NCBI GenBank assembly: GCA_963702005.1
Contig: OY969696.1
Location: 1,856,001 to 1,920,000, forward strand
DNA length: 64,000 nt
DNA from: Candidatus Aminicenantes bacterium
GTDB taxonomy: Bacteria; Acidobacteriota; Aminicenantia; Aminicenantales; JAFGBC01
Direction: 5' to 3'
In this document: positions 1 through 14,918 of the stretch, piece after piece
Layout of the letters: each line of letters starts with the position of its first letter
Position numbering within the stretch: position 1 is the stretch's first letter
Made by a program: the position numbers and the translations under genes
Notes under the pieces: model-generated
What the model was told of the DNA's origin: nothing
The model's database searches: none
The model's input: the letters and a program-made list of their open reading frames with translations, nothing else

Positions 1-241
1 AAACCGCAATGGTCGCATGGCCGCACAAATCCACCTCGGCGGCCGGAGTGAAAAATCTTATTTTGAAGTCCGCCGCAGCGGACTTTTGAACGAACGCCGT
101 TTCTGATAAGCCGACTCTCGCGGCGATCTTTTGCATGGAGGTTTCAGCTAGACGATCCGCATCAAGCACAACCCCCGCAGGATTGCCGCCCTTCGTTGTT
201 CTCGCAAAGGCGTTCAAGGTAGTGACGATGATTTTCTGCAT
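1..241 (-). CDS. PhzF-family isomerase/epimerase (runs off the left window edge)
   Basis: Not in the ORF track. Hand translation from the ATG at 241: MQKIIVTTLNAFARTTKGGNPAGVVLDADRLAETSMQKIAARVGLSETAFV...FKIRFFTPAAEVDLCGHATIAV. It carries the PhzF motifs GNPAGV, SETAF and EVDLCGHAT. Confidence 0.9.
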   Translation of the reverse strand, partial: MQKIIVTTLNAFARTTKGGNPAGVVLDADRLAETSMQKIAARVGLSETAFVQKSAAADFKIRFFTPAAEVDLCGHATIAV

Positions 242-386
242 CCTTACAATATTAATCCGTGTCGAATCAATTTGTAAATGAATACGATCGTGGGAGCCTT
301 TTTTGCGGCTTGACGGTTCCCGGCTGTTTATGTTAAATGTCGAATAATTAGTTGGCTTCTCACAGCTCGTTACGAGTGGAGGCAAT

Positions 387-1700
387 ATGATCAAGAAGGA
401 CGGAAACCTGACACGCGGACGTGATTACCGAAAGATCCCCATCTGGAAGAATGTCTCCGCGGCCGAATGGGACGATTGGAATTGGCAGCTTAAGAACAGG
501 ATCACCTCGGTTGACCAGTTGAAGCAAGTCGTGGAGATGACGGAAAAGGAACAACAGGAGGTGAACACGGCCCTGAAGTTCCTTCGTATGGCGATAACGC
601 CTTACTACGCCAGCCTCATGGATGCCTCCGACCGGAATTGTCCCATCCGCAGAAGGGCCATTCCTGCCGAGAAGGAAGTCAAACTCAGCCCGGAGGACAT
701 GGTCGACCCTCTCCATGAGGATGCGGAGTCGCCCGTTCACGGACTGACGCACAGGTATCCCGACCGCGTCCTCCTCCTGGTCACGGACCAGTGTTCCATG
801 TACTGCCGGCATTGCACGAGGCGGCGGAATGCCGGCGAGACCGACCGGGCCCTGCCTAAAAGCGATATCCTGGCGGCCATCGAGTACGTCCGGGAAACGC
901 CCCAGGTGAGGGACGTGTTGATCTCCGGCGGTGACCCCCTGACCCTGTCGGACGGGTTTCTTGAGGATATTCTGCGGAGGGTCCGTCAGATCCCCCACGT
1001 GGAGATCGTCCGCTTGGGGACAGCGGCCCCGGTGGTCATGCCGCAGAGGATCACTCCCGGGCTGGTCGCCATTCTCAGGAAATATCATCCCCTGTATATC
1101 AACGTCCATTTCAACCATCCCAAGGAGATCACGCCGGAATCCAAGAGGGCCTGCGAGATGCTGGCCGACGGCGGCTTCCCGCTGGGCAATCAATCGGTCC
1201 TCCTGAAGGGGACGAACGATTCTCCCATCGTCATGAAGAAACTCGTCCATGACCTGGTCCGGATCAGGGTCCGCCCTTACTACATCTATCAGTGCGACCT
1301 CTCCCAGGGCATCGGCCACTTCCGGACATCGGTGAGCAAGGGCATAGAGATCATCGAGAACCTGAGAGGCCACACCACCGGTTTCTGCGTCCCAACCTTC
1401 GTCGTGGACGCCCCGGGGGGAGGGGGCAAGATCCCTGTGATGCCCACCTATCTGATCTCCCGGAACGAGCGCCGGGTCGTCCTTCGTAATTATGAGGGGG
1501 TCATCTGCATCTATACAGAGCCCGAACCTTCCGAGGGGAGGTGTCCCGACGAAGACGATCTGCGGCGGGAGTTCCCCGGCCTGGAAAGCCGGGAAGGCGT
1601 AGCGGCCCTCCTGCGCGGCGGCCGGGTCAACATCGCCCCGGCCGGCCTGGAGAGACAGCGCCGGAGCAAGCTCTACAAGAAAGTCAAACGCACATCATGA
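387..1700 (+). CDS. kamA: Lysine 2,3-aminomutase (radical SAM/PLP)
   Basis: W-x-DW-x-WQLKNRI N-terminus, HRYPDRVL, CSMYCRHC radical SAM motif, SGGDPL, and PLP lysine in GGGKIP. GGAGG RBS upstream. Confidence 0.93.
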   Translation: MIKKDGNLTRGRDYRKIPIWKNVSAAEWDDWNWQLKNRITSVDQLKQVVEMTEKEQQEVNTALKFLRMAITPYYASLMDASDRNCPIRRRAIPAEKEVKLSPEDMVDPLHEDAESPVHGLTHRYPDRVLLLVTDQCSMYCRHCTRRRNAGETDRALPKSDILAAIEYVRETPQVRDVLISGGDPLTLSDGFLEDILRRVRQIPHVEIVRLGTAAPVVMPQRITPGLVAILRKYHPLYINVHFNHPKEITPESKRACEMLADGGFPLGNQSVLLKGTNDSPIVMKKLVHDLVRIRVRPYYIYQCDLSQGIGHFRTSVSKGIEIIENLRGHTTGFCVPTFVVDAPGGGGKIPVMPTYLISRNERRVVLRNYEGVICIYTEPEPSEGRCPDEDDLRREFPGLESREGVAALLRGGRVNIAPAGLERQRRSKLYKKVKRTS

Positions 1701-2905
1701 CCCAAGCCTTGAACACCCTCCATTCTCATTTTCCGCCCGACGGGGATATCCGGGACCTCCTCGTTCGGCTCATCCGGACGCCTTCCTATCCGGGAGTGCC
1801 GCGCCAGGAGGAGGCCGTCGCCCGGGAGATCGGCGGCTTTCTTCAAGCCCGCGGCATCGAGCCGCTCTATCAGGAAGTCCGCGAAGGGAGGCCGAACCTT
1901 CTGGCTTCGCTAGGGGGGAACCGGCCCGGTCCGCACCTTCTCTTCTGCGGCCACATGGACACGGTCCCCCCGAACACGGGAAACCCTGAAGATGCGCTTG
2001 CCGCCGTCGAAAAAGACGGCCGGCTCCACGGGAGGGGGACCGTGGACATGAAAGGCGCCTTGGCCGCCATGGCCGGGGCCTTGGTGGCCCTGAAGAACGC
2101 CGGGGAGCCCGCCTCGGGCCGGGTCAGCCTGGCCGCCGTGATCGATGAAGAAATGGAAAGCCTCGGCGCCGAAAAACTCATTCTTGAAGGGTTCACGGCC
2201 GACGGGGCCGTCATCGGCGAACCGACCGGCAACAGGATCGCCATCGGCCATCGGGGTTTGGAGTGGCTGCAGATCGACTTCCAAGGCCGGGCCGCCCACG
2301 GCGGAACGCCGGAGGCGGGTCTCAATGCCATCTCGGCGGCGGCCCATTTCGTCCATCTCGTGGAAAACGAGCTTGTTCCGGCCTTAGCCCGGAGACGTGA
2401 CCCCGTGCTCGGCCCTCCAGCCATCAACCTTGGGACCATCGCCGGCGGAGATCAGCCGAGCACGGTCGCCGCCCATTGCCGGATCAGGCTCGATCGGCGT
2501 TGGGTGACGACGGAGACGATCGAGATGGTCTTTGAAGATTTAGAGGGCCTCTTGCGCCGGGTCCGCGAATCTCGCCCCGGTCTCAAGACCGAAATATCCC
2601 GGATGCCCGGCGGGATGGCCACGATGGTCCACGGCCCGGTGACCATTCCCCCGGAGCACTCCCTTGTCCGGGCCGCGGAAACGGGCCTCGCCGAGCTCGG
2701 CCATTCCTCCCGGCCCCTGACCGTTTTTCCCGCTTGGACGGACGCCTCGCTCATCTCCCGGGAAGGGCACATCCCGTCCATCGTCTGGGGCCCGGGGGGG
2801 CTTGAATACGCTCATTCTCCCGAAGAAAGCATCCTTCTGGCGGAGGTCTATCAGGCCGTCAGGCTCTACGCTCTGGCGGCTTGGCATTTCACCAGGCCCG
2901 AATGA
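1697..2905 (+). CDS. M20 metallo-deacylase (ArgE/DapE/YodQ-like)
   Basis: Motifs CGHMDTV, GRGTVDMKG, DEE, GEPT and AHSPEE. Start placed at ATG 1697, which overlaps the kamA stop (ATGA), not at 1541. Confidence 0.88.
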   Translation: MTQALNTLHSHFPPDGDIRDLLVRLIRTPSYPGVPRQEEAVAREIGGFLQARGIEPLYQEVREGRPNLLASLGGNRPGPHLLFCGHMDTVPPNTGNPEDALAAVEKDGRLHGRGTVDMKGALAAMAGALVALKNAGEPASGRVSLAAVIDEEMESLGAEKLILEGFTADGAVIGEPTGNRIAIGHRGLEWLQIDFQGRAAHGGTPEAGLNAISAAAHFVHLVENELVPALARRRDPVLGPPAINLGTIAGGDQPSTVAAHCRIRLDRRWVTTETIEMVFEDLEGLLRRVRESRPGLKTEISRMPGGMATMVHGPVTIPPEHSLVRAAETGLAELGHSSRPLTVFPAWTDASLISREGHIPSIVWGPGGLEYAHSPEESILLAEVYQAVRLYALAAWHFTRPE

Positions 2906-4281
2906 AGATCAAGATCCCCCACACCTACGTCCTTCTTATCTCCCTGACCGTGTTCGCGGCCATCCTGACATGGGTTGTCCCGGCCGGGCGGTATGAGCGG
3001 GCCGTCGACCGGGACCGGACCCTTATCGACCCCGCGTCCTTTCATGCCGTCCAAGCCCAACCGGCGGGAATTTTCGAGATCCTCCTGGCGTTTCCCAAGG
3101 CCCTGGTTGAAGTCGCCAACATCATCTTCTATATCTTCATCATAGGCGGCACATTCGGTGTTCTCAACAGGACGGGTCTCATCCAAGGCGGCATCCAGGC
3201 TTTAGTCAAACGGATCGGCGGCCGGCAGGCCTTGATCGTCCCCGTCCTGACGCTCGTTTTCGCGGTCGGCGGGGGGACCATCGGCATCGCCGAAGAGACC
3301 CTTGTCTTTCTGCCCGCCCTCCTTCTCCTGGCCCGCTCCTTGGGTTATGACTCGCTCACCGCCGGCGGGATCGCGCTTGTGGGCGCCAACGCGGGATTCG
3401 CCGCGGCCTTCATGAACCCCTTCACGGTCGGAGTGGCCCAGGGAATCGTCGGACTTCCGCTGTTTTCGGGAATCGGTTTCAGGGTCATCCTATGGGTGGT
3501 CATGACCACGGTGACCATCCTCTTCCTCTCCCGCTACGCGGCCAGAGTCAAGGCCAACCCCGGGATCAGCCTGATGCGCGAATACGACCTGAAGAGGGAG
3601 GCTGGGGCTCCACGGGACGAGGATGTTTTATTTACCCGGAGGCACGTCGCCGTGCTTGTCGTGACGGTGGCCGCCCTCATCGTCCTGATCCTCGGCGCGA
3701 TCCGCTGGCATTGGGGCCTTCTCCAACTCTCGGGCCTATTCTTCGGCCTGGCCATTGCGGCCGGCCCGATCGGCGGGCTATCCCTCGATGACACGGCCCG
3801 GAGTTTCATTCAGGGCGCCCAGGACATGACTTATGCCGGACTTGTCGTCGGATTAGCCCGGGGTGCCCTCGTCATCCTTCGGGACGCCAACGTCATCGAT
3901 ACCTTGACCCACGCCATGGCGGGCCTCGTCGGACGTTGGCCGTCCTCCATCAGCGTCATCGGCATCTACCTCATGCAGAACTTGCTCCACTTCATCGTCC
4001 CTTCGGGGAGCGGCCAGGCCGCGGTATCCATGCCCATCCTGGCGCCCCTCGGGGACCTGGTCGGCATCACCCGTCAGACAAATGTCCTGGCTTACCAGCT
4101 GGGGAACGGGCTGACCAACGTCTTCATCCCCACCCAAGGCTATTTCATGGCCGCCCTGGGCATTCTCAAGATCCCTTGGGAGAAATGGATCCGCTGGCTC
4201 CTGCCGCTTCTTCTCATCTGGCTGGGCCTGGGCATGGCGGCGGTAATCATCGCCCAAGCCATTCATCTGGGGCCGTTCTGA
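2902..4281 (+). CDS. YfcC/DcuC-like (basic amino acid antiporter-type) membrane transporter
   Basis: PHTYVLL...LTWVVPAG N-terminus, NPFTVGVAQ, PSGSGQA and multiple TM helices. ATGA overlap with the upstream stop. Confidence 0.85.
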   Translation: MKIKIPHTYVLLISLTVFAAILTWVVPAGRYERAVDRDRTLIDPASFHAVQAQPAGIFEILLAFPKALVEVANIIFYIFIIGGTFGVLNRTGLIQGGIQALVKRIGGRQALIVPVLTLVFAVGGGTIGIAEETLVFLPALLLLARSLGYDSLTAGGIALVGANAGFAAAFMNPFTVGVAQGIVGLPLFSGIGFRVILWVVMTTVTILFLSRYAARVKANPGISLMREYDLKREAGAPRDEDVLFTRRHVAVLVVTVAALIVLILGAIRWHWGLLQLSGLFFGLAIAAGPIGGLSLDDTARSFIQGAQDMTYAGLVVGLARGALVILRDANVIDTLTHAMAGLVGRWPSSISVIGIYLMQNLLHFIVPSGSGQAAVSMPILAPLGDLVGITRQTNVLAYQLGNGLTNVFIPTQGYFMAALGILKIPWEKWIRWLLPLLLIWLGLGMAAVIIAQAIHLGPF

Positions 4282-4332
4282 AAAAGGGGGGGAACGGGTC
4301 AACGGTCATCCCGGGAGTCGAAGGAGGCTGTC

Positions 4333-5502
4333 ATGAACCGCCGTGATTTTCTCAGGGCCACCTTGGCAGGGGCGGCCATCCTCCCCTCGGCCCCTCCTCT
4401 CTTATCCGTTCCCGTGCTTGCGGACGACGGCCGGCGAAAAAGGCTCCGGGAGCTCGGCATTATCATCGGCGACCTGGCCCCGGGACCCTTCAACGCCATC
4501 ACGGATGTCCGGGGAGTCAGGGTCGGCCATACGACGATCATCGAGGGCCAAGGCAAGGGAGCCGCCCGGACCGGGATCACCGTCCTCCTGCCCCACGAAG
4601 GCAATATCTATGAGGAGCGTCTCTTCGCTTCTTCGTTCGGGCTTAACGGCTGGGGAGAAATGACCGGGCTGGCCGCGATCGAAGAGACAGGGCTGCTCGC
4701 GACTCCGATCTTCCTGACCGGAACCTACAATGTCGGCATTGTCCAGAGCGCCGCCTCGGCCTATCTCCGGAAGACGAACCCCAGGCTGGGGCTTTCAGGA
4801 GGAACCGTCCATCCGGTCGTGGCCGAGTGCTTTGATGATTTTCTGAGCGATACGCCGAGCCGCCCCGTCTCCGCGAAGGACGTTTTTGCCGCCATCGAGA
4901 GCGCCGCGGGAGGACCCGTGGCCGAGGGAGCGGTCGGAGGCGGGACCGGGATGACATCCTTCGGCTTCAAGGGCGGCATCGGCACGTCCTCCCGGAAGAT
5001 CAAAAGCGGCGCCACGGTCGGCGTTCTGGTCATGGCCAACACCGGCGGCCGAGGTCAGTTGCGCATCGACGGCGCGCCCGTCGGCCGGGAAATTCGAGGA
5101 TTCGAAAAAGCGGAAAAACGGACGAAGTCCATCATCCTCATCGCCGCTACGGACGCTCCTCTCCTTTCCTATCAGCTCAGGAAAATCGCCAAGAGGGTCG
5201 CCCTGGGACTGGCCCGGGTAGGGGCCATTTCCGAGACAGGAAGCGGCGACATCATCTTGGCCTTCTCCACGGCCAATCGGGTTCCGCGGGTCTCGGCCGG
5301 GGCGGTCCAAAATATCCGGGCCGTCAACGATTTCCTGATCACGCCCCTTTATCAGGCGACCGTCGAGGCCACCCAGGAAGCGATTCTCAACGCCTTGACC
5401 TCCGCCGCGACCATCATTGGCAAGGACGGCAACACGAGCTATGGGATCCCTCTTGACCAGGTCGAAAGGATCATGAAAAAATTCCGGAGGCTGGGGGAGT
5501 AG
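4333..5502 (+). CDS. DmpA/BapA (P1/S58) aminopeptidase with Tat signal peptide
   Basis: Twin-arginine signal MNRRDFLR. NAITDVxGVxVGH, PVVAEC, GAVGGGTGM, KGGIGTSSR, nucleophile Ser in K-SIILIAATDAPL, and SGD. Confidence 0.9.
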   Translation: MNRRDFLRATLAGAAILPSAPPLLSVPVLADDGRRKRLRELGIIIGDLAPGPFNAITDVRGVRVGHTTIIEGQGKGAARTGITVLLPHEGNIYEERLFASSFGLNGWGEMTGLAAIEETGLLATPIFLTGTYNVGIVQSAASAYLRKTNPRLGLSGGTVHPVVAECFDDFLSDTPSRPVSAKDVFAAIESAAGGPVAEGAVGGGTGMTSFGFKGGIGTSSRKIKSGATVGVLVMANTGGRGQLRIDGAPVGREIRGFEKAEKRTKSIILIAATDAPLLSYQLRKIAKRVALGLARVGAISETGSGDIILAFSTANRVPRVSAGAVQNIRAVNDFLITPLYQATVEATQEAILNALTSAATIIGKDGNTSYGIPLDQVERIMKKFRRLGE

Positions 5503-5505
5503 ACC

Positions 5506-6507
5506 ATGCGAGGCGAGAAGAATTCCATCACCGACGTCGGCGGGGTCAGGGTCGGGAATCTCACGTTCCAACGAGACATCCAGGGTCCGTCGGGAGGTCT
5601 GATTGCGGCGCGGACCGGTCTGACCGCCGTCCTACCCTCGCTCATGGAAAAGGAGCTGAGGTTCTTTTTCTCCACCGATGCCCTTGGGGCGGGGCTGGAG
5701 ATCACGGGCTACGAGGTCACGGAGGATTTTGGCTACCTGAATTCGCCCCTGGTCATCACCAATGCCTGCAACTTGGGCAAGGCTTACAATGCCGCCCTCT
5801 CTTACGGCTTCACCTTGAAGCGGGGCGAAATCTGGCCCCCGGTGGTCATCGGGCTCAACGATTCCTTCTTGAACGGGATGGACCGGGAATGCCTTGAGGA
5901 AGGGGACATTCTGGATACCTTCCGCCGGGCCACGGACGGGAAGGTCGAAGAAGGCTCGGTCGGGGCCGGGACTGGGCTGCGGGCCTTGGGCGCCAAAGGA
6001 GGCATCGGCACGTCTTCCCGCCGTGTTTTCATCGGGGAAGAGGCATACACCTGCGGCGTCTTGGCCGCCTCTCATTTCGGCAACACGGGCGCGGCGAACG
6101 GGAAGCCCCCGGCCGAACGAGCGGGTGAGGATGAGGGCGCCCTCATCCTAATCACCGCCATGGATATTCCTCTCCTCCCTCATCAGCTCCGGAGAATCAC
6201 CAGGAGCCTGGTCGCCCGGATGGACGCCTCCATCCCATCGGGAAGCTTCTCGGATGCCGTCCTCGGGGCGACCTTCACAACGGCCAATGCCATGAACCTT
6301 TCGGAGGAGGGGCCCGTGGAATTCGAGTTCCGATCCGTCGCCGACATCCATCTCGAGGGCATCGCCGAAGCCGCCTGCTGGGCGGCGGAGGAAGCCGTCG
6401 TCCATTCTCTTCTTCAAGCCCGGCCGGTTCGAGGAAAATCCGGCCGCACTCTGGAGACCATCTCTCCGGAGCGCCTGGCCGGGATCTTCAAGAATAAGGA
6501 AGCTTGA
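5506..6507 (+). CDS. DmpA/P1-family paralog, predicted catalytically inactive
   Basis: Keeps NSITDVGGVRVG, EGSVGAGTG and KGGIGTSSR. The nucleophile site reads G-ALIL, PVVAE reads PVVIG and SGD reads FSD. No signal peptide. Confidence 0.8.
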   Translation: MRGEKNSITDVGGVRVGNLTFQRDIQGPSGGLIAARTGLTAVLPSLMEKELRFFFSTDALGAGLEITGYEVTEDFGYLNSPLVITNACNLGKAYNAALSYGFTLKRGEIWPPVVIGLNDSFLNGMDRECLEEGDILDTFRRATDGKVEEGSVGAGTGLRALGAKGGIGTSSRRVFIGEEAYTCGVLAASHFGNTGAANGKPPAERAGEDEGALILITAMDIPLLPHQLRRITRSLVARMDASIPSGSFSDAVLGATFTTANAMNLSEEGPVEFEFRSVADIHLEGIAEAACWAAEEAVVHSLLQARPVRGKSGRTLETISPERLAGIFKNKEA

Positions 6508-6515
6508 TTCGTGCC

Positions 6516-7937
6516 ATGAATAACTCTGAACAACAACCCCGCCTGCTCCGAAAAATGAACCTCCTGGACGCCACCTTCCTGGTCATCGGCTCCGTCGTCG
6601 GCTCCGGGATCTTCATGACCTCGGGCATCATCGCCGGATATCTGCCGTCGCCCGGCCTGCTCCTCGTCGTCTGGGCCGTGGGCGGCCTGTTCACGCTCTG
6701 TGGGGCCCTGTCCTTCGCTGAGCTGGGGGCCATGTTCCCCAGGGCCGGAGGACAATACGTCTATATCCGCGAAGCCTACGGTCCCTGGGCTGGGTTCCTC
6801 TTCGGCTGGGGCTTCTTCTGGTTCATTATGTGCGGCGGGATTGCCACTCTGGCCGTGGGCTTCGCCGAATTCGCGGGGTATTTCCTCCCTTCATTGTCCA
6901 CCCAGGCCGTCATCCTAAAGTTGACCCTTTTCGGCCTGCCCTATACCCTTTCCGCCGGGCAGCTCCTGGCCGCCGGAGCGATCATCTTCCTGACCGCCGT
7001 CAACTACCTCGGTGTCAAGACGGGGGTCGTCGTCCAGAACATCTTCACCTTTCTCCGGCTGGGATCGGTGGCGGCCATCGCGGTCTTCGGGCTGACCCTG
7101 GGAAAACGGGCGGGCATTACAAACTTCGGACAGCTCTTTTCAGGCGGAGAAGCCCTGGGGCCTCACGTCTTCTCGGCCTTCGGGTTGGCCCTTATCGCCG
7201 TCCTCTGGACCTATGACGGCTGGTATTCGGTTAACTGTACGGGAGAGGAAATCAAGAGGCCGGAAAGAAACATCCCCCTTAGCCTTCTGCTCGGAACGTT
7301 AAGCGTCACTGTGATCTATCTCGTGGTCAATGTCGTCTATGTCCTGGCCCTGCCGGTGGAGAAGATGAAGGGAGTGGTCCGTATCGGCGAACTCGCCTCC
7401 ACCCAACTCTTCGGGCCGATGGCTACGTCGGCCATCGCGGCGGCCATCATGATCTCCGTCTTCGGCTGCTTAAGCGCGACCATCCTCTACGGTCCCAGGG
7501 TCTATATGGCCATGGCCGAAGACCGGGCATTCTTCCGGAGCATGACCTATATCCATCCCCGTTACCGGGTTCCCAGCAAGGCCTTGATCGGCCAGGCCGT
7601 GTGGTCCTGCCTTCTCTGTCTTTCCGGGAAATACCAGGCCCTCTACGAGTACGTCGTCTTCGCCCTCGTCATCTTTTTTGCCGCCACGGGGTTCGCGGTC
7701 ATCGTCCTCCGCCGCAGCAAGCCGGACCTTGTCCGGCCTTACAGGGTCTGGGGCTATCCTTTCATCCCGGTCCTCTTCGTCCTGATCAATCTGGCCATTT
7801 TCGGCAACACCATCGCCGCCCAGCCGCTTAAGTCTCTCATCGGGATGGCCATCCTCCTCATTGGGATCCCGGCCTACCTCCACTGGCAAAAAAAGGGCGC
7901 GGCCGCCCGGAAGGAGTCAACGTGTCCGCGAAAATAA
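6516..7937 (+). CDS. APC-family amino acid permease
   Basis: IGSVVGSGIF, AELGAMFPRAGGQYVY, YDGW, EEIKRPERNIP and RPYRVWGYP. About 12 TM helices. ATG 6516 preferred as start. Confidence 0.92.
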   Translation: MNNSEQQPRLLRKMNLLDATFLVIGSVVGSGIFMTSGIIAGYLPSPGLLLVVWAVGGLFTLCGALSFAELGAMFPRAGGQYVYIREAYGPWAGFLFGWGFFWFIMCGGIATLAVGFAEFAGYFLPSLSTQAVILKLTLFGLPYTLSAGQLLAAGAIIFLTAVNYLGVKTGVVVQNIFTFLRLGSVAAIAVFGLTLGKRAGITNFGQLFSGGEALGPHVFSAFGLALIAVLWTYDGWYSVNCTGEEIKRPERNIPLSLLLGTLSVTVIYLVVNVVYVLALPVEKMKGVVRIGELASTQLFGPMATSAIAAAIMISVFGCLSATILYGPRVYMAMAEDRAFFRSMTYIHPRYRVPSKALIGQAVWSCLLCLSGKYQALYEYVVFALVIFFAATGFAVIVLRRSKPDLVRPYRVWGYPFIPVLFVLINLAIFGNTIAAQPLKSLIGMAILLIGIPAYLHWQKKGAAARKESTCPRK

Positions 7938-9370
7938 AATCCATCAGCAACCCCCGATTGAACCTCAGGGTCCTACGTGTCGAGGACATCCGCAGGATCC
8001 ATGAGACCACCCTGGAGATCGTCGAAACCATCGGCGTGAAATTCCCGTCCCCAAGGGCCCTGGACATCTGGGAGGCTCATGGCGCCCGGGTGGACTGCGG
8101 AACGCAGGTCGTCAAAATTCCCGCGGCCCTCCTCGAATCCGCCCTGCGCAGCGCGCCGCCCGCCTTCACTCTTGCCGCCCGGGAGCCCTCCCAGGACCTT
8201 CCCCTGGACGGAAACCACGTCTATGTCGGCACGGACGGCTGCGGCTTCGAGGTGATCGACATCGCAACGGGCCTGAAGCGGCGGTCAACGGTCCGGGACG
8301 TGGCGGACATCGCGCGCGTCGCCGATGACCTGGAGGAAGTGGCCTTCCATTGGGTCCCCGTTTCCGCCCAGGACTGCCCGCCCGAAACCCGGGGACTTCA
8401 CGAGATCCTCGCAATCTGGAGCAATTCCACCAAGCATGTCCAGACGGAAAGCATTTATTCCGGAAGGGAAGCCCGGGCGGCCGTGGAAATGGCCTCGGTC
8501 CTGGCCGGCAACCGGGATGCCCTCCGCAAGCGGCCTCTCCTATCCATCATGGAATGCACCATCTCCCCCTTGGCCCAGGACAGCGGGAGTCTCGAAGCGG
8601 CCCTTGTCGGCGCCGAGGCCGGGTGCCCCGTTGGGTTCATGACCATGGCCTCCTGCTGCTCCACGGGACCGGCCACCATGGCCGGGAACCTCGCCTTAGG
8701 CAACGCCAAGGTCCTCAGTGCCCTGGCCCTCATCCAGCTCGCGTTCCCCGGTGCCCCGGTGTATTACGCCTCCGCGCCGACGGTCATAGACCTCCGTTCA
8801 GGCGCCTATACGGGAGGCGGTCCGGAGGACTTCCTGTTTGGCGCCGCTTCCAACGAGCTGGCCGATTTTTACAATCTTCCGCTTTCCATGGGCTCCTTCG
8901 CTACGGGCGCCAAGGAACCCGGCTGGCAGGCCGGCCTGGAAAACAGCCTCTCGACCTTCATGGCCTCGGCGGTCATGTCCGATATGCTTCTCGGCGTAGG
9001 CCTTCTCAATGGGAGCACCATCTGGTCCTTTGAGCAGATGATCATGGATTGCGAGATCTTCAGCATCGTTCGCAAGATGATGGAGGGCATTCCCGTGGAC
9101 GCCGAGACGCTGGCTCTGGAGGCCATCCGGGAGGCCGGCCCCAGGGGAGATTTTCTGACCCATGACCATACCCTCCGGCACATGCGAGGGCTTTGGATCA
9201 ACACTCTCCTTGACCGCCGTCCTTATACGGTCTGGGAGAGCAAAAGGGACGGCGCCCGGGACTGGGCACGCGACAAGGCCAAGGCCATCCTCGCCGCCCA
9301 CCATCCGGCCGCCTTGGAGCCCAAGCTGGAAGCGGAATTGAGGAAAATCATTCTGTCCGCGGGAGTCTGA
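7922..9370 (+). CDS. MttB-superfamily (trimethylamine methyltransferase-like) corrinoid methyltransferase, non-pyrrolysine
   Basis: IHETTLEIVETIGV, TISPL, TGPATMAG, G(A)PVYY, FYNLP, AKEPGWQAG, SFEQMIMDCEI and GDFLTHDHT. No in-frame TAG. GTG start after AAGGAG. Confidence 0.88.
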   Translation: MSAKIKSISNPRLNLRVLRVEDIRRIHETTLEIVETIGVKFPSPRALDIWEAHGARVDCGTQVVKIPAALLESALRSAPPAFTLAAREPSQDLPLDGNHVYVGTDGCGFEVIDIATGLKRRSTVRDVADIARVADDLEEVAFHWVPVSAQDCPPETRGLHEILAIWSNSTKHVQTESIYSGREARAAVEMASVLAGNRDALRKRPLLSIMECTISPLAQDSGSLEAALVGAEAGCPVGFMTMASCCSTGPATMAGNLALGNAKVLSALALIQLAFPGAPVYYASAPTVIDLRSGAYTGGGPEDFLFGAASNELADFYNLPLSMGSFATGAKEPGWQAGLENSLSTFMASAVMSDMLLGVGLLNGSTIWSFEQMIMDCEIFSIVRKMMEGIPVDAETLALEAIREAGPRGDFLTHDHTLRHMRGLWINTLLDRRPYTVWESKRDGARDWARDKAKAILAAHHPAALEPKLEAELRKIILSAGV

Positions 9371-9595
9371 AGATCTGAAACCGCCGGACACCGCGGATCG
9401 CATCGTAAAATCTTTCCCGGCCGCTGTCCTGGGCGCCCTTGTCCTCTTCGCGGCCCGCGGCCGGGACAGAGGTCCTCGTCCCCAGGAAAAGGCAGAGTGC
9501 GAACCGCTCCCATCCCCTGTCCATCCAGGGTAAGTTTCTTAAATGGCAAGATATAGGCCCCTTCGGTAACATTTTAGACGGCGCGATTCGCGAAA

Positions 9596-9624
9596 TTGAC
9601 ACCCCCCGGGCCGTGTGCCATAAT
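9596..9624 (+). promoter_or_regulatory. Sigma70-type promoter for the LKR-SDH pair
   Basis: TTGACA (9596-9601), 17-nt spacer, then CATAAT (9619-9624) preceded by TG (extended -10). Confidence 0.7.
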
Positions 9625-9667
9625 ATCTCTTTAATTTTCGCGACTCTAAGAAGAAGGCCTTATCATC

Positions 9668-10984
9668 ATGAACAAAGTTGCCATCGGCATCCGCAGGGAA
9701 GACATCAACAAGTGGGAGAGACGGGCGCCCCTGATCCCATCCCACGTCCGTGAGCTCATCCGGGATCATGGGCTCGAGGTCTACCTCCAGCCTTCGACCA
9801 TCCGGGTGTTCCCCGACACCGATTACGCCCTGGAGGGGGCCCGGGTCAAGGAGGATATCTGCCCATCAAGGACCGTTTTCGCCATCAAGGAGATTCCCAT
9901 CGAGAGCCTGGCGAAAGACAAGGTCTACGTCTTCTTCTCGCATACGGCCAAAGGTCAGTCCCATAACATGCCCATGCTCAAGCGGATGATGGAGCTCGGC
10001 TGTTCCATCATTGATTACGAGAAGATCGTCAACGAAAAGGGCCAGCGGATCCTGTTCTTCGGGAGCTACGCCGGCCAGGCCGGAATGATCGACTCCCTCT
10101 GGGCCTTGGGGCGCAGGCTGCAGCTCGAGGGCGTCGAGACGCCCTTCCTCCGCCTGGAGCAGACGATCCGCTACAAAAGCCTCGTCGAGGCCAGGGAAGA
10201 GGTCGCCGAGGTCGGCCGCCTCATCCACAAGAAAGGCCTGCCGCCCCGGCTGGTCCCGTTTGTATGCGGATTCCTGGGCTATGGCCATGTCTCCCAGGGG
10301 GCTCAGGATATCTTCGACCTCATTCCCCACGACACGGTCTCGCCCAAGGACCTCGCGGGCCTCTTCCGGAAGGCGGGACCTCCCGCCCGCGGGCTCTACA
10401 AGGTCGTCTTCAAGGAAGAGGACATGGTCCGGCCCGCAGCTCCCGGCGGGACCTTCGATCTTCAGGACTATTACCGCGAGCCCGGGAAGTACGTCCCGAT
10501 CGTGGAAAGCTATGTCCCCTATCTCAGCCTGCTCATCAACGGCATCTACTGGACGTCGAAGTACCCCAAGTACATCACCAAGCCTTTCCTCGCAAAACTC
10601 TACGGCGGGGACGTCCCGCCCCGGCTGAAGGTCATCGGGGATATAACCTGCGACATCGACGGCTCTGTGGAATGCACCATCCAGGCCACGGATTCCGAAG
10701 AGCCGGTCTACGTCTATGACCCCGCGAAAGACGCCGCTGTGATCGGCATCGAGGGCAAGGGGCCGGTCGTCATGGCGGTCTACAACCTGCCCGCTGAACT
10801 GCCGCTTGAATCCTCTTCCTTTTTCAGCGGAGGCCTCAAGAAGTACGTCCCGGCCATCGCTGCGGCGGATTTCCGGGTTCCGTTCGACAAGTGCGAGCTC
10901 CCGCCGGAGGTCCGCAAGGCCGTCATCCTCTACCGCGGCGAGCTCACGCCCGATTATAAATATCTTTCGGAATACCTCTCGTAA
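9668..10984 (+). CDS. Lysine-ketoglutarate reductase / saccharopine dehydrogenase (lysine-forming type, AlaDH/PNT fold)
   Basis: IGIRREDINKWERRAPLIP, FFSHTAKGQ, IDYEKI, GxGHVSQGA, INGIYW, DITCD and NLPAELP. Confidence 0.9.
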   Translation: MNKVAIGIRREDINKWERRAPLIPSHVRELIRDHGLEVYLQPSTIRVFPDTDYALEGARVKEDICPSRTVFAIKEIPIESLAKDKVYVFFSHTAKGQSHNMPMLKRMMELGCSIIDYEKIVNEKGQRILFFGSYAGQAGMIDSLWALGRRLQLEGVETPFLRLEQTIRYKSLVEAREEVAEVGRLIHKKGLPPRLVPFVCGFLGYGHVSQGAQDIFDLIPHDTVSPKDLAGLFRKAGPPARGLYKVVFKEEDMVRPAAPGGTFDLQDYYREPGKYVPIVESYVPYLSLLINGIYWTSKYPKYITKPFLAKLYGGDVPPRLKVIGDITCDIDGSVECTIQATDSEEPVYVYDPAKDAAVIGIEGKGPVVMAVYNLPAELPLESSSFFSGGLKKYVPAIAAADFRVPFDKCELPPEVRKAVILYRGELTPDYKYLSEYLS

Positions 10985-11008
10985 CCCGGAGCGGAAAGGG
11001 AGACCGTC

Positions 11009-12325
11009 ATGAAGAAGGTATTCGTCGCCGGAGCGGGCCTCGTCGTCAAGCCCCTGGTCGGGTACCTCCTCGAACAGCCCGGCTTCCAGGTCGAGGTCGC
11101 CGACGTCGAGCCCGACAAGGCGGCCCGAATCGTCGCGGGACACCCGCGCGGGATCGCGGTCACTCTGGACATCCAGGACGCGGCCGCCCTGCGGATGCGG
11201 ATCGCCGAGGCCGACCTCGTCGTCAGCATGGTCCCCTACACGTTCCACCCGGTCCTCGGAAGGATCGCGATTGACCTGGGTAAGCCCATGGTCACGGCGT
11301 CCTACGTCAGCCCGGCCATGAAGGCCCTCGACGAGGATGCTAAAAGAAACGGCGTCATCCTCCTGAACGAGCTCGGCCTCGACCCCGGCATCGACCACAT
11401 GGAGGCGATGCGCATCATTCGGCGGATCAAGGGCGAGGGGGGAGAGGTCCAGGGATTCGTCTCCTGGTGCGGAGGGTTCCCGGCCCCCGAGGCGAACACC
11501 AATCCCTTCGGCTACAAGTTCTCCTGGAGCCCCAAGGGCGTCCTGCTGGCGGGCAAGAACTCCGCCCGGTACCTCGAGGACGGACGCGTCGTTTTCATCT
11601 CTGCCGAGGAGCTGTTCGAGAGCTTCCGGACCGTCACGATACCCGGCTGCGGGGACTTCGAGGCCTATCCCAACCGCGACTCCGTGCCCTACGCGGAAGC
11701 CTACGGCATCCCGGAGGCGAAGACCATGCTCAGGGGCACCCTGAGGTATCCCGGCTGGTGCCCGACGATGAAGAAGATCGGGGATCTGGGCCTTCTCGAC
11801 CAGAAGGAACGTGACCTCTCCGGAAAGACCTACGCCGGTCTCGTCCGCGAGCTCGCCCAGGCCGGCCCGGGCAGGGAACTCAGAAATGCCCTCGGCCGGG
11901 CCCTTGGCCTCGCCCCGGATTCGGCGGTGCTCGGGCGGTTGGAATGGCTCGGGCTCCTCGAGGAGAGGCCCATCCCGGCCGGCGCCGGCACGCCCCTCGA
12001 CGCCTTGGCCGCCCTGATGATCGAGAAGCTCCGTTACGAAGAAGGCGAGAGGGACATGATCGTCCTCCGGCACGAGTTCCAGACCGCCTGGCCGAACGGC
12101 TCGACCGAGAAGATTGTCTCGACCATGATCGACTACGGTATCCCCCACGGGGATTCCTCGATGTCGCGAGCCGTGGGGCTTCCCGCAGCCATTGGCGCCC
12201 GGCTCATCCTTGAGGGGAAGATCCTCAAAACCGGAGTCCAGACGCCCCTTGATCCCACGATCTACGAGCCGATCCTCGAAGAGCTCTCCCGTCACGGCGT
12301 CGTGTTCCGAGAAGAACGGCTCTAG
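11009..12325 (+). CDS. Saccharopine dehydrogenase (glutamate-forming, Lys9-like)
   Basis: GAGLV Rossmann motif, VTASYVS, NELGLDPGIDHM, SWCGGFP, YKFSWSP, EAYPNRDS and RGTLRY. Confidence 0.92.
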   Translation: MKKVFVAGAGLVVKPLVGYLLEQPGFQVEVADVEPDKAARIVAGHPRGIAVTLDIQDAAALRMRIAEADLVVSMVPYTFHPVLGRIAIDLGKPMVTASYVSPAMKALDEDAKRNGVILLNELGLDPGIDHMEAMRIIRRIKGEGGEVQGFVSWCGGFPAPEANTNPFGYKFSWSPKGVLLAGKNSARYLEDGRVVFISAEELFESFRTVTIPGCGDFEAYPNRDSVPYAEAYGIPEAKTMLRGTLRYPGWCPTMKKIGDLGLLDQKERDLSGKTYAGLVRELAQAGPGRELRNALGRALGLAPDSAVLGRLEWLGLLEERPIPAGAGTPLDALAALMIEKLRYEEGERDMIVLRHEFQTAWPNGSTEKIVSTMIDYGIPHGDSSMSRAVGLPAAIGARLILEGKILKTGVQTPLDPTIYEPILEELSRHGVVFREERL

Positions 12326-12375
12326 ATGAAAGCCTGATCAGCCGCTGAGGCTCTTTGGCCCGGCCCCGCGGATCC

Positions 12376-14751
12376 TTATCGTTTCCTGGTCCTGGCCTCC
12401 AGGGCTTGGCCTTTTCCCAGCTCCGCCCGATACTCGGACAGACGCCCCAGGCGGTTGTAGATATCGGCCAGGACATAATGACCCAAGGGAGCCGATTCCG
12501 CCTCGGGCTCCAATTCCAGCCCCTTCCGGGCGAGGCTAATGGCTTCGTCGAAGTTCTCGTTCCGGTCGAGATAGGCCTTGGCCAGGAAGAGGTATCCGCG
12601 CGCGAATTGAGGATTGGCCTTGACGGCTTCTTTGAAATGCTCGAATTCACCCTGCCGGTCGCCGGTCCTGCCGCAGACGAGCGCCAAGTTGAAATGGGCC
12701 AGGGAGGCGGCGGGATGGATCTCGATCTCTTTCCGGTATTCATCCGCGGCTCGTTGGAGATCGCCTTTCTCCTCATACAGAAGACCCAGGTTGAAGTGGG
12801 CGTCCGGTATCTGTGGCCGCATCTCGAGCGACCTCCGGATCTCCCGTTCCGCCGGCTCGAGCATCTTCTTCTCAAGATAGGCGGAGCCCAGGAGATTATG
12901 GGCGACGGCGCTGTGTTCCGGGTCCGTAGCGATCGCCTTCTCGAGATGGGAGATGGCCGCGTCGAAATCCCGGACGTCCAGAGCGATCTCACCGAGGTTG
13001 ACATAGGGCTTCGGGTCCTTCGGATCGAGCTCGATGATGCGCCGGAAGCCGGCGGCCGCTTCGTCCGGCTTCTTGAGTTTCCTGAAGGCTTGGGCCATGG
13101 TGAAGATCGCCGCTTCGTAGTCGGGGTCGATCTCCAGGGCCGCCCGGCATTCCTCGACCGCTTCTTCAGGGCGATCGAGCTCCATGTAGATCTGACCCCG
13201 GACCTGGCGGGCCTCCATGATCCCGGGGTCCTCATCGATGACCTCGCCGATATTCTTTAAGGCATCGTCGTATTCGCGGTCGGCCGAAGCCCCCTCGGCC
13301 TGTTTGATCTTGTTGTAGAGGTGGATCTTGTCCTTGGGGTCGGCGAGGTCGGCGGAGCGGCCGAGTCTCGCGCTCGATGTGAACCCGCCGACGTAGCCCA
13401 AGGCCTTCAGTTTCTCCAAGGTATCATTATCCGGTTGCCGGGGGGCTTTCGATTCGTCCCCTTGAACCGGCGAACGCTCCTGGATCCTCTTCATCTCTTT
13501 GATGAACTTCTCCGCCTGGGGGCCGTTTTGCCCGTAGATATTGGCCCTTTCCATGGGGTCCCGGACGATGTCGTAAAGCTCGGGCCGCGGCGCCTGGATG
13601 TATTGGTACCGGACGGTCCGGAGGCTCTTGAGCTCGCTCCACCCATAATGGTATCGAGGGTAATAGCTTTCGCTATAGGCCATCTTTTCGGTTTCGGACC
13701 GGCCGCCGGCCAAGAGGGAGGCCAGGCTTCTTCCCTGGACCTCCTTGGGAACGGCGATCCCGAGGAGGTCGAGGAGCGTGGGCATAATGTCCACGTTCTC
13801 CACCTGGGCATCGATGATCTTCGCCTTCAAATTCGATGCGGGGAGCTTGAGGATCAAGGGGACGGAGACGGTGGAATCGTAAATGTAAAAAGCGTGTGAA
13901 CTCTCCCCGTGTTCCCCCAGGCTTTCCCCGTGATCGGCCGCGATGACGATGATGGTCTTGTCCAGGACCCCCCTTTCCCGGAGGCTTTCCAGGACCTTAC
14001 CGATGAGCGAATCCACATAAGCGATCTCGCCGTCGTAGAGCCCCCAGGGCCGCGCCGCATACTCGCTCTTGTAGGGCTCGGGCGGATCGTAAGGGGTATG
14101 GGGGTCGTAGAAGTGGATCCAGCTGAAGAAGCGGCGGTCCCCGTTCGTTTTGAACCAATCGAAAAAGGCTTTGATGACCTCGCCCCCTTTACGCTGGACG
14201 GAATCGAGGCTTATCTTCTTGTACTTGGCGAAATCGAAATTGTCATAGTAGTAATCGAAACCCTGGTCGAGCCCCCAGCGGGAATCGAGGACGAAGGCGC
14301 CGACGAACGCGCTCGTCGCCCAGCCTTTTTGCTTCAGGAGTTCGGCCAGAGTGACTTTTTCCGGCCCCAGGTAGAAACCGCCGTTGTCCCTGACACCGTG
14401 AACGAACGGATAGGTCCCCGTGAAGATCGAGGAATGCGATGGCAGGGTCAAGGGGGCCTGGGCCGTCGCGTTCTTGAAAAGGACTCCATCCGCGGCCAGC
14501 CCGTCGATATTCGGCGTCCGAACGTTCGGGTAGCCGTAACATCCGAGGTGGTCGGCCCGGGTCGTGTCCAGGGTGAAGAGGAGGACGTTCATCTCCGAGA
14601 ACGTCCCGAGTCCTTTCTTGAAAAAGCCCTTGTTCAGCCCGAGATAGATCAGAAAACCGAGGGTGGCAATGCTTGCCGCCCAGAGAATGATGCGGCCCGC
14701 GGAAGGCCCATCGCCGGCTGAGGCCCTTTCATGATCGCGCTTGGCGGACAT
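12376..14751 (-). CDS. Membrane-anchored sulfatase-like (alkaline phosphatase superfamily) hydrolase with C-terminal TPR repeats
   Basis: N-terminal TM helix, LDTTRADHLGCYG, PLTLPSHSSIFTG (Thr instead of CxPxR), HFYDPH, ADHGE, and a TPR array in the C-terminal part. Confidence 0.88.
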   Translation of the reverse strand: MSAKRDHERASAGDGPSAGRIILWAASIATLGFLIYLGLNKGFFKKGLGTFSEMNVLLFTLDTTRADHLGCYGYPNVRTPNIDGLAADGVLFKNATAQAPLTLPSHSSIFTGTYPFVHGVRDNGGFYLGPEKVTLAELLKQKGWATSAFVGAFVLDSRWGLDQGFDYYYDNFDFAKYKKISLDSVQRKGGEVIKAFFDWFKTNGDRRFFSWIHFYDPHTPYDPPEPYKSEYAARPWGLYDGEIAYVDSLIGKVLESLRERGVLDKTIIVIAADHGESLGEHGESSHAFYIYDSTVSVPLILKLPASNLKAKIIDAQVENVDIMPTLLDLLGIAVPKEVQGRSLASLLAGGRSETEKMAYSESYYPRYHYGWSELKSLRTVRYQYIQAPRPELYDIVRDPMERANIYGQNGPQAEKFIKEMKRIQERSPVQGDESKAPRQPDNDTLEKLKALGYVGGFTSSARLGRSADLADPKDKIHLYNKIKQAEGASADREYDDALKNIGEVIDEDPGIMEARQVRGQIYMELDRPEEAVEECRAALEIDPDYEAAIFTMAQAFRKLKKPDEAAAGFRRIIELDPKDPKPYVNLGEIALDVRDFDAAISHLEKAIATDPEHSAVAHNLLGSAYLEKKMLEPAEREIRRSLEMRPQIPDAHFNLGLLYEEKGDLQRAADEYRKEIEIHPAASLAHFNLALVCGRTGDRQGEFEHFKEAVKANPQFARGYLFLAKAYLDRNENFDEAISLARKGLELEPEAESAPLGHYVLADIYNRLGRLSEYRAELGKGQALEARTRKR

Positions 14752-14783
14752 TGCGATAAATCTCCTATCTTATCCATATCGGT

Positions 14784-14813
14784 ACTATATCTTCGGCCTG
14801 TTGGCCCTGTCAA
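14784..14813 (-). promoter_or_regulatory. Sigma70-type promoter for the sulfatase-TPR gene
   Basis: Minus-strand TTGACA (14813-14808), 18-nt spacer, TATAGT (14789-14784). Confidence 0.55.
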
Positions 14814-14918
14814 TCGCGGCGAAAAGCCGCGAAATGATTGCCTGTGGAAATCTGCGGAACTATCCCTGGCTTGAATTTCTTAGAATGAGCGGATAAAATA
14901 TTTGCTAAAGGCAGAACG

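Follow-up and report, generated by a model that had tools for sequence, protein, structure and literature searches.

A mosaic gene block with lysine genes in an Aminicenantes genome and its MttB homologue lacking the known glycine-betaine-binding residues

Given that nine genes follow one another on the same strand at positions 387-12325 of a 64,000-nt stretch of a Candidatus Aminicenantes genome, and that lysine enzymes stand at both ends of the row, the question arises whether they constitute a single lysine pathway, as an earlier note on this DNA had supposed, or whether separate modules have been brought together in this lineage. The whole stretch (hereafter the window, in whose coordinates positions are given) corresponds to C1:1856001-1920000 of G000, a single-contig genome of 4.31 Mb and 94% completeness; here G000 denotes the source genome and C1 its contig, other G numbers denote comparison genomes, and L numbers denote loci. 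We find that the block is a mosaic of three separately inherited modules, namely kamA-M20-yfcC, dmpA1-dmpA2-APC-mttB, and LKR-SDH, and that the mttB gene of the window (hereafter mttB*, with its product MttB*) belongs to a clade of methyltransferases which, judged by its active-site residues, cannot bind glycine betaine in the known way. The reading that we favor, with a probability of roughly 45%, is that the block is a lineage-specific fusion of these modules in peptide-living Aminicenantes, in which MttB* would demethylate an amino acid freed from peptides. The nine genes, whose identities as given in the earlier note were all correct according to open reading frame (ORF) calls, Pfam, and NCBIfam, are the following:

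387..1700, + strand: kamA, lysine 2,3-aminomutase (TIGR03820, the AblA equivalog, 590.1 bits versus a cut-off of 525.4)
1697..2905, + strand: M20, deacylase of the ArgE/DapE family (Peptidase_M20 and M20_dimer; TIGR01910, 226 bits versus 217.6)
2902..4281, + strand: yfcC, transporter of the YfcC/DcuC family (PF03606, 338 bits; NF008611, 339 bits, under its cut-off of 500)
4333..5502, + strand: dmpA1, S58 aminopeptidase with a twin-arginine signal (PF03576, 352 bits)
5506..6507, + strand: dmpA2, S58 paralogue without a signal peptide and with the nucleophile replaced by Ala (PF03576, 190 bits)
6516..7937, + strand: APC, permease of the LAT (L-type amino acid exchanger) branch (AA_permease_2 domain)
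7922..9370, + strand: mttB*, methyltransferase of the MttB superfamily, of the type not dependent on pyrrolysine (non-Pyl; PF06253, 292.9 bits, positions 21-492 of 500)
9668..10984, + strand: LKR, lysine-ketoglutarate reductase-like (AlaDh_PNT_N; LKR domain of human AASS, E 8.5e-76)
11009..12325, + strand: SDH, saccharopine dehydrogenase of the glutamate-forming type (Sacchrp_dh_NADP and Sacchrp_dh_C; 1E5L, E 4.9e-99)

From kamA through SDH, the junctions between these co-directional genes measure -4, -4, +51, +3, +8, -16, +297, and +24 nt, and the tight coupling that had been described for the first seven holds, with overlaps or gaps of at most 51 nt throughout. The promoter that had been ascribed to LKR and SDH alone was also found, as a sigma-70-like site (9596..9624, + strand; TTGACA-17-CATAAT with an upstream TG, 11 of 12 positions) lying 44 nt before LKR.

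That the block is a mosaic emerges from the very different prevalence of its parts. Among 201 genomes of the class, G000 counted, LKR is present in 170, an M20 orthologue in 20, MttB* in eight, a DmpA2 orthologue (at least 46% identity) in four, and a kamA orthologue (at least 73% identity, the next best reaching 56%) in three. LKR-SDH is accordingly a core gene pair of the class, and it occurs beside mttB only in the window and in the nearest relative, L189, which is also the only other place where the full nine-gene order recurs. In that relative the LKR-SDH copy beside mttB (L189:14022-15927, one record with L018 and L111) is truncated, and an intact pair is located elsewhere (L110). Other genomes hold the modules apart or interrupted. 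The dmpA-APC-mttB module stands without kamA in G203, G204, and G137, and kamA is found in G201, G202, and G205 as well: in G202 a kinase gene separates kamA-M20-yfcC from dmpA1 and LKR-SDH lies on a separate contig, and in G205 kamA is placed about 15 kb upstream of dmpA1. G192 has kamA without dmpA2, its M20 orthologue 11.5 kb from kamA, its MttB* on another contig, and two copies of LKR, one of which comes immediately behind kamA and has no SDH with it. The genes downstream of kamA in G091 encode IclR, a class III aminotransferase, a thiolase, and a CoA transferase.

Both products of the third module are homologous to the animal saccharopine enzyme AASS over the full length of its two domains (E 8.5e-76 and 1e-86), and SDH also matches the fungal, Lys9-type reductase (E 5e-99). 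In contrast to AASS, they are encoded by two separate genes, a pair that many phyla of uncultured anaerobes share. A scan with LKR kept 80 such loci, in 70 of which SDH follows LKR; kamA is near LKR in two of the 80, one being the nearest relative and the other a Bipolaricaulota locus with LKR, SDH, a DapF-like gene, and kamA. In all, linkage of kamA to LKR or SDH was seen in the window, G192, L078, and L166.

The second line of evidence concerns MttB* itself, whose reading frame is open throughout, without an internal stop codon. Among solved structures it is matched best by MtgB of Desulfitobacterium hafniense (9YCE/2QNE, E 7e-72 over residues 16-480), which belongs to the same superfamily, nearly as well by the Pyl-dependent MttB 7XCL (E 2e-68), and then by 4YYC (E 2e-38). 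It differs from Pyl-dependent MttB in having no TAG codon, in carrying Ala327 at the Pyl position, and in scoring 426 bits against TIGR02369, the model of Pyl-dependent trimethylamine methyltransferases, which is under the cut-off of 525. The alignment between the FYxxP and K..QAG motifs is gap-free, and it puts not only Ala327 at the Pyl position but also Ser322 at R312 of MtgB. According to excerpts of PMC13080624, the MtgB residues Y97, R312, H348, and F356 bind glycine betaine, as shown there by mutagenesis and a ligand-bound structure; R312 is described as conserved in all members of known function, and its replacement by Leu as abolishing activity. In MttB* the four positions are occupied by C107, S322, L357, and S365, so that none of the four glycine-betaine-binding residues is kept. 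This pattern extends to the whole set of 68 orthologues (at least 55% identity, from Aminicenantes and Chloroflexi), in which the five-position signature reads C/S/A/L/S in 66 sequences and C/S/A/A/S in two. It is on these residues that we judge the clade unable to bind glycine betaine in the known way. PylD was not found in G000. As for MttB2, the second non-Pyl MttB of G000 and 26% identical to MttB*, a pyrrolysine was considered and rejected, since its TAG, found 14 codons into the extended frame, precedes the ATG.

To our knowledge, the non-Pyl MttBs of known activity remove only one methyl group, from a quaternary amine. The proposal in the earlier note that methyl-lysine is stripped fully to lysine to feed the saccharopine pathway is for this reason not supported, and the locus moreover encodes neither a corrinoid protein nor a second methyltransferase. 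A full-text literature search found no paper linking trimethyllysine with MttB; searches on Aminicenantes mttB, or on kamA with saccharopine dehydrogenase and beta-lysine, yielded no title or abstract describing this cluster.

What MttB* does may instead be approached through its neighbors. A scan of the collection with MttB* gave 233 related stretches, of which 80 loci were kept and compared with the nine proteins by tblastn. In a FastTree phylogeny, rooted on paralogues and read with support values not inspected, the window groups with 15 loci in a single clade, which is placed within Chloroflexi sequences; this answers in part the phylogenetic placement proposed earlier, comparison with superfamily members of known structure having been pairwise. 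Each of these 15 loci has the APC gene no more than two genes away from mttB*, in 12 cases directly upstream, and the S58 pair is present in 10; the pair is missing from the available sequence of L025, L027, L028, and L085, and L016 is too short to judge. By comparison, M20-yfcC was found in three of the 15, kamA in one, and LKR in one. The remaining Aminicenantes neighbors include M28, C69, M14, and S15 peptidases, TonB-dependent receptors, IclR regulators, and a gene of the ornithine-cyclodeaminase family, together with a set of class III aminotransferase, aldehyde dehydrogenase, CoA-transferase, and thiolase genes in L020 and L027. The digested-protein setting that the earlier note had envisaged thus finds support in the peptidases and receptors among which the module sits in relatives.

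In the 65 Chloroflexi loci, the arrangement is a different one. A corrinoid-protein gene lies directly upstream of mttB* in 59 of the 63 that have enough upstream sequence, as opposed to 0 of 15 Aminicenantes loci, and an MttB paralogue directly follows mttB* in 37 of the 65. By tblastn, these loci contain an S9 peptidase in 31 cases, an M20 enzyme in 26, a GntR regulator in 27, a pterin-binding methyltransferase in 17, and a family-5 peptide-binding protein in 11. The Chloroflexi orthologues thereby keep the three-gene logic of the MtgB-MtgC-MtgA system of D. hafniense, with the corrinoid gene and, in those 17 loci, the pterin-binding methyltransferase. The window, in contrast, has no gene for a corrinoid protein or for MtgA, and its mttB* is coupled to a LAT-type permease and S58 peptidases. 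Taken together, the neighborhoods in the two phyla indicate that MttB* is corrinoid dependent and that its gene accompanies peptide uptake and peptidases in both. One Anaerolineae locus, L078, combines the themes, with LKR-SDH-kamA divergent from corrinoid protein, MttB*, MttB, and pterin methyltransferase. The corrinoid protein upstream of MttB* in this locus (L078:8651-9991) is 446 aa long and has an N-terminal extension of about 230 aa without a Pfam match. A separate observation was made in L061, where PylS-like, corrinoid-protein, PylB-like radical SAM, PylC-like ATP-grasp, and PylD genes adjoin mttB* (L061:13451-20062) and are followed by an ORF for dimethylamine methyltransferase, which breaks off at profile position 353 of 463, a short ORF carrying on from there; pyrrolysine decoding is thereby suggested for this Aminicenantes-type metagenome-assembled genome (MAG).

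Candidate partners for MttB* are encoded elsewhere in G000. An operon about 970 kb from mttB* (C1:2829199-2834228; L100:7199-12228) consists of homocysteine S-methyltransferase (HcyMT), RACo/RamA, a corrinoid protein, and MttB2, and its corrinoid protein is 46% identical to a Chloroflexi one encoded beside MttB*. Within the operon, HcyMT occupies C1:2829199-2830272, the activase RamA C1:2830279-2832066, and the corrinoid protein C1:2832056-2832745. The operon resembles the MtgBCD cassette of Ruegeria pomeroyi, a split methionine-synthase-type design for glycine betaine (excerpts of PMC12478193), the differences being the distance of the G000 cassette from mttB* and the low identity between MttB* and MttB2. 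In relatives the distance is smaller: in L085 the genes for RACo, HcyMT, corrinoid protein, and MttB2 are succeeded, on the same strand, by those for an aminotransferase, APC, and MttB*, and in L020 and L021 the same cassette lies a few kilobases from mttB*. We infer that the corrinoid protein, RamA, and HcyMT of G000 are used by MttB* in trans. Since this corrinoid protein is encoded in an operon with HcyMT and RamA, the methyl group would pass to methionine or possibly to folate. A second small corrinoid protein is encoded at 2194838-2195503 of G000, and a protein of 832 aa (C1:473266-475764; L104:3266-5764), in which MTHFR and DUF5981 are fused to a weak pterin-binding domain, might connect methyl-corrinoid with the folate pathway.

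The genes coupled to mttB* in the window suggest where its substrate might come from. The N-terminus of DmpA1 reads MNRRDFLR and then turns hydrophobic, eight of eight orthologues retain RR-x-F, and TatC is encoded in G000 (229 bits); DmpA1 is predicted to be exported by the twin-arginine translocation (Tat) route. The nucleophile is retained, Ser266 within the SIILIAATDAPL motif corresponding to Ser250 of DmpA (1B65), and the protein matches S58 structures, namely DmpA/BapA (1B65, 3N2W) and PH0078 (2DRH), with E-values from 2.3e-90, for 2DRH, to 7e-66. DmpA2, in contrast, has Gly-Ala at the position of Gly249-Ser250 in 1B65 and may be a pseudoenzyme subunit. Among six DmpA2 orthologues, Ala is found in the window, L019, and L017 and Ser in L023, L061, and L020, which limits the idea of a dead partner to the lineage of the window. 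What distinguishes these proteins from the known DmpA/BapA enzymes is thus that they form a conserved tandem pair, the first copy with a Tat signal and the second without a signal and, in this lineage, with an Ala nucleophile position. When mature DmpA1 and DmpA2 were modeled as a complex, the score was 0.87, versus 0.00 for the best of three controls, with three runs sharing at least 88% of contacts and a partner pLDDT of at least 85; the mark that the model reaches is also reached by 116 of 157 solved complexes and by two of 215 mismatched pairs, and, since solved S58 homo-oligomers exist, the result may reflect mere likeness to them. A single-sequence search of genome contigs with DmpA2 retrieved five loci, all from close relatives. 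G000 has a third S58 gene (C1:869201-870409; L105:5201-6409), whose product has a signal-like N-terminus and whose neighbors are a cupin gene, an asparagine synthase gene, and two S-adenosylmethionine-methyltransferase genes.

The permease gene overlaps mttB* by 16 nt. Its product is closest among solved structures to BasC (6F2G, E 1.6e-60), followed by xCT, y+LAT1, and b0,+AT at 1e-55 to 1e-49, and its best NCBIfam match is TIGR00911, at a score far under the cut-off.

For the kamA-M20-yfcC module, the assignment to lysine is grounded in KamA. The protein stays under the cut-offs of the models for glutamate and arginine aminomutases, aligns to 2A5H, the Clostridium enzyme, with an E-value of 4.5e-169, contains the radical-SAM motif CxxxCxxC as CSMYCRHC, and keeps D, D, and K at the positions of D293, D330, and K337, which we take to be the Asp pair holding the epsilon-amino group and the lysine that binds pyridoxal phosphate. 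By these sequence features KamA appears specific for lysine. The kamA stop overlaps the M20 start (ATGA). M20 has DapE (2.6e-33) and ArgE (4.9e-27) as its nearest solved structures, and the NCBIfam name for the yfcC match is putative basic amino acid antiporter. Of the lysine genes that the earlier note had reported absent from the window, several were sought in the whole of G000. Kce/BKACE (PF05853) and AblB (TIGR03827) found no match genome-wide, the control genomes being matched in each case (two above the cut-off for AblB), so that this part of the claim stands for the entire genome; KamD (PF09043) found no match in G000 either, a weaker negative as no control genome matched, and Kdd and Kal were not searched. 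As neither turned up in these searches, kamA was not put down to classical lysine fermentation or to AblB; a complete fermentation pathway elsewhere that explained kamA would, by the terms of the earlier note, have refuted its proposal.

A pairing of KamA with an M20 deacylase is known from the Bacillus subtilis yod-kamA operon, whose order is yodT-yodS-yodR-yodQ-yodP-kamA and which the kamA layout of G091 recalls. It differs from the present case in that no AblB-type acetyltransferase was found in the window or the genome and that G000 has no close orthologues of its aminotransferase, thiolase, and CoA transferase; a yodT-like route through such enzymes was rejected for G000, where only generic homologues, 27-48% identical, are found elsewhere in the genome. 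In an excerpt of PMC6522883, the function of the B. subtilis operon is given as still undetermined. In our locus, KamA most plausibly connects beta-lysine and lysine, and it could run towards LKR-SDH.

From these observations we propose the following mechanism. DmpA1 would be exported by Tat, probably as a hetero-oligomer with the signal-less and catalytically dead DmpA2, and in the periplasm would trim an unusual N-terminal residue or amide off peptides. The LAT-type APC exchanger would import the freed methylated amino acid, possibly against the demethylated product, and MttB* would move one N-methyl group to a corrinoid protein supplied by the distant C1:2829199-2834228 operon, the methyl group ending in methionine and possibly in folate. 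Rather than glycine betaine, the substrate would probably be an amino acid of larger size whose alpha-amino group is free and whose side-chain amine is methylated, methylated lysine being our leading guess. The kamA-M20-yfcC module would serve the import and deacylation of a basic or beta-amino-acid derivative, with N-epsilon-acetyl-beta-lysine as the leading guess, whereupon KamA would interconvert beta- and alpha-lysine, and LKR-SDH, from its own promoter, would take the lysine through the ordinary saccharopine route of the class. A precedent for substrate preparation exists in the choline system MthB-MthC-MthA-MthK of Eubacterium limosum, in which, according to excerpts of PMC12155760, an accessory enzyme must modify the substrate before demethylation by the MttB-family enzyme MthB, which acts on an acidic substrate, phosphocholine. 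There, a kinase does the preparing, and the cluster itself includes genes for the corrinoid and folate components; here, peptidases or deacylases would take that part. The fully specified version of our proposal goes further, in making MttB* a new substrate class of the MttB superfamily that demethylates protein-derived methylated amino acids (N-epsilon-trimethyllysine or methylated N-terminal residues), with a heteromer of active and dead S58 subunits, an exchange by the LAT permease, and a split methionine synthase in trans, and in this complete form we consider it rather unlikely.

Several observations weigh against our preferred reading. On the side of MttB*, the corrinoid protein, second methyltransferase, and activase are all absent from the window, so that the use of a distant operon is an assumption, and in Aminicenantes MttB* could be inactive or have another role. 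We also know of no characterized non-Pyl MttB that does not act on an acidic quaternary amine by way of the Arg that MttB* has lost. On the side of the peptidases, the DmpA2 nucleophile is retained in three of six orthologues, and DmpA2, having no signal, may simply be cytoplasmic. The lysine theme is loosely tied to MttB* as well: kamA, LKR, or SDH is nearby in just one of 65 Chloroflexi loci, and M20 orthologues occur in 14 genomes without MttB*. In the class sample, kamA orthologues are confined to MttB*-positive genomes (3 of 8 versus 0 of 193), which partly supports a lysine link, but as these genomes are related and not independent, the counts overstate it, and kamA is missing from five of the eight and likewise from G203 and G204. 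Of the lysine-centered picture drawn in the earlier note, what remains is therefore a set of links among kamA, MttB*, and LKR, and not a single conserved lysine pathway, the modules being inherited apart. Finally, our own codon-model caller for neighboring genes was unreliable on L024, L026, L030, L051, L066, and L078; as it failed on some loci, the final counts rest on tblastn.

In the integrated pathway of the earlier note, all nine genes would serve one family of modified lysines, with MttB demethylating, M20 deacylating, and KamA converting beta- to alpha-lysine ahead of the saccharopine route. Nine co-directional genes, the first seven tightly coupled, the recurrence of the same order in L189, the restriction of kamA orthologues to MttB*-positive genomes, the kamA-SDH-LKR genes beside corrinoid protein and mttB* in L078, and a permease of amino-acid type all fit this integrated pathway. 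However, its modules are inherited separately, the LKR-SDH copy beside mttB in L189 is truncated, LKR-SDH has a promoter-like site of its own, the MttB family removes a single methyl from a quaternary amine with no known enzyme in the locus to complete the demethylation, and the full-text search joined no paper on trimethyllysine to MttB; we deem such a pathway unlikely. We would say the same of a second proposal, that MttB* is an ordinary methyltransferase acting on glycine betaine or a similar osmolyte for methionine synthesis and that its peptidase and lysine setting is functionally meaningless. It is routine to annotate the non-Pyl MttB genes of MAGs as mtgB (excerpts of PMC6081815), MtgB is the best solved match of MttB*, and the cassette of G000 with another MttB follows the split methionine-synthase-type design that PMC12478193, in the excerpts cited above, shows for glycine betaine in Ruegeria. 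Against this stand the loss of all four glycine-betaine-binding residues, among them R312, whose replacement by Leu abolished activity, and the nearly equal match to Pyl-MttB. Moreover, a betaine importer of the BCCT or OpuA type is absent, the permease coupled to mttB* being LAT-type, and peptidases and peptide importers accompany the clade in two phyla.

Two further explanations keep a role for the S58 enzymes while changing the substrate or the direction. A Tat-exported S58 enzyme might free an N-terminal residue that is methylated (trimethyl-alanine or dimethyl-proline, for example) and blocked against ordinary aminopeptidases, for MttB* to take a methyl group from the resulting alpha-betaine. 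S58 enzymes accept unusual N-termini, and the nearest relatives are named D-aminopeptidase and beta-peptidyl aminopeptidase; the Chloroflexi members of the clade have S9 and M20 peptidases as neighbors, and it is to these two families that acylaminoacyl-peptidase and aminoacylase belong, enzymes for blocked N-termini; and alpha-betaines are inside the known chemical range of the MttB family. Yet LAT-type permeases recognize a free alpha-amino group, and the carboxylate-binding Arg is absent from MttB*, so that we hold this substrate to be quite improbable. Still further from our expectation, and in our estimate scarcely credible, is a biosynthetic locus in which KamA supplies beta-lysine, the S58 pair acts as a beta-peptide-forming transferase, and a beta-lysine solute or peptide is exported. 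The KamA equilibrium does favor beta-lysine, S58 enzymes can catalyze aminolysis, and two transporters are encoded in the block, but there is no AblB, ligase, nonribosomal peptide synthetase, or ATP-grasp gene in it, DmpA1 is predicted to be exported while KamA is cytoplasmic, and the neighbors in relatives are degradative peptidases and catabolic genes.

The borders and signals of the block complete its description. It is bounded by a divergent PhzF gene on one side and a convergent sulfatase-TPR gene on the other, and the following further features were noted:

2-394, - strand: PhzF-family gene, divergent neighbor of kamA
222..250, + strand: sigma-70-like match upstream of kamA (weak; 9 of 12 positions, a consensus match only)
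9515..9530, + strand: terminator-like hairpin 3' of mttB* (weak; 5 pairs)
12376-14751, - strand: sulfatase-TPR fusion protein of 791 aa, downstream flank
14919-16988, + strand: GWxTD-domain TPR protein of 689 aa, downstream flank

Across the region, the total count of terminator-like sites is no higher than in shuffled sequence, and no Rfam family, lysine and cobalamin riboswitches included, was matched in window positions 1-15000 at E-values up to 1. A PhzF-family gene beside kamA recurs in several lineages (window 2-394 on the - strand, L189:3941-4453, and L221:11011-11946), and in L166 a DapF-like isomerase gene (L166:2867-3754) takes its place. The + strand ORFs at 12355-14721 are antisense shadows of the sulfatase gene. 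Farther upstream, G000 encodes an M28 peptidase, a TonB-dependent receptor, and a protein of the C45/AAT family.

Non-Pyl MttB homologues are among the commonest annotated methyltransferase genes in sediment MAGs and are usually read as glycine betaine enzymes; in a floodplain study, 17% of MAGs had an annotated mttB, with Aminicenantia and Anaerolineae as the most frequent carriers (excerpts of PMC11264602). MttB* represents a well-delimited clade within them that is tied to peptide uptake and peptidases in two phyla, which makes it a candidate for a new substrate class and counsels caution against counting genes of this type as betaine demethylases in models of the carbon and methane cycles. 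The recurrent but loose link among kamA, the saccharopine genes, and MttB* may in turn reflect the catabolism of beta-lysine-type solutes from methanogens. If MttB* is indeed a demethylase of methylated amino acids, anaerobic sediment bacteria would have an unrecognized route by which to draw one-carbon units and methionine from the protein of dead biomass.

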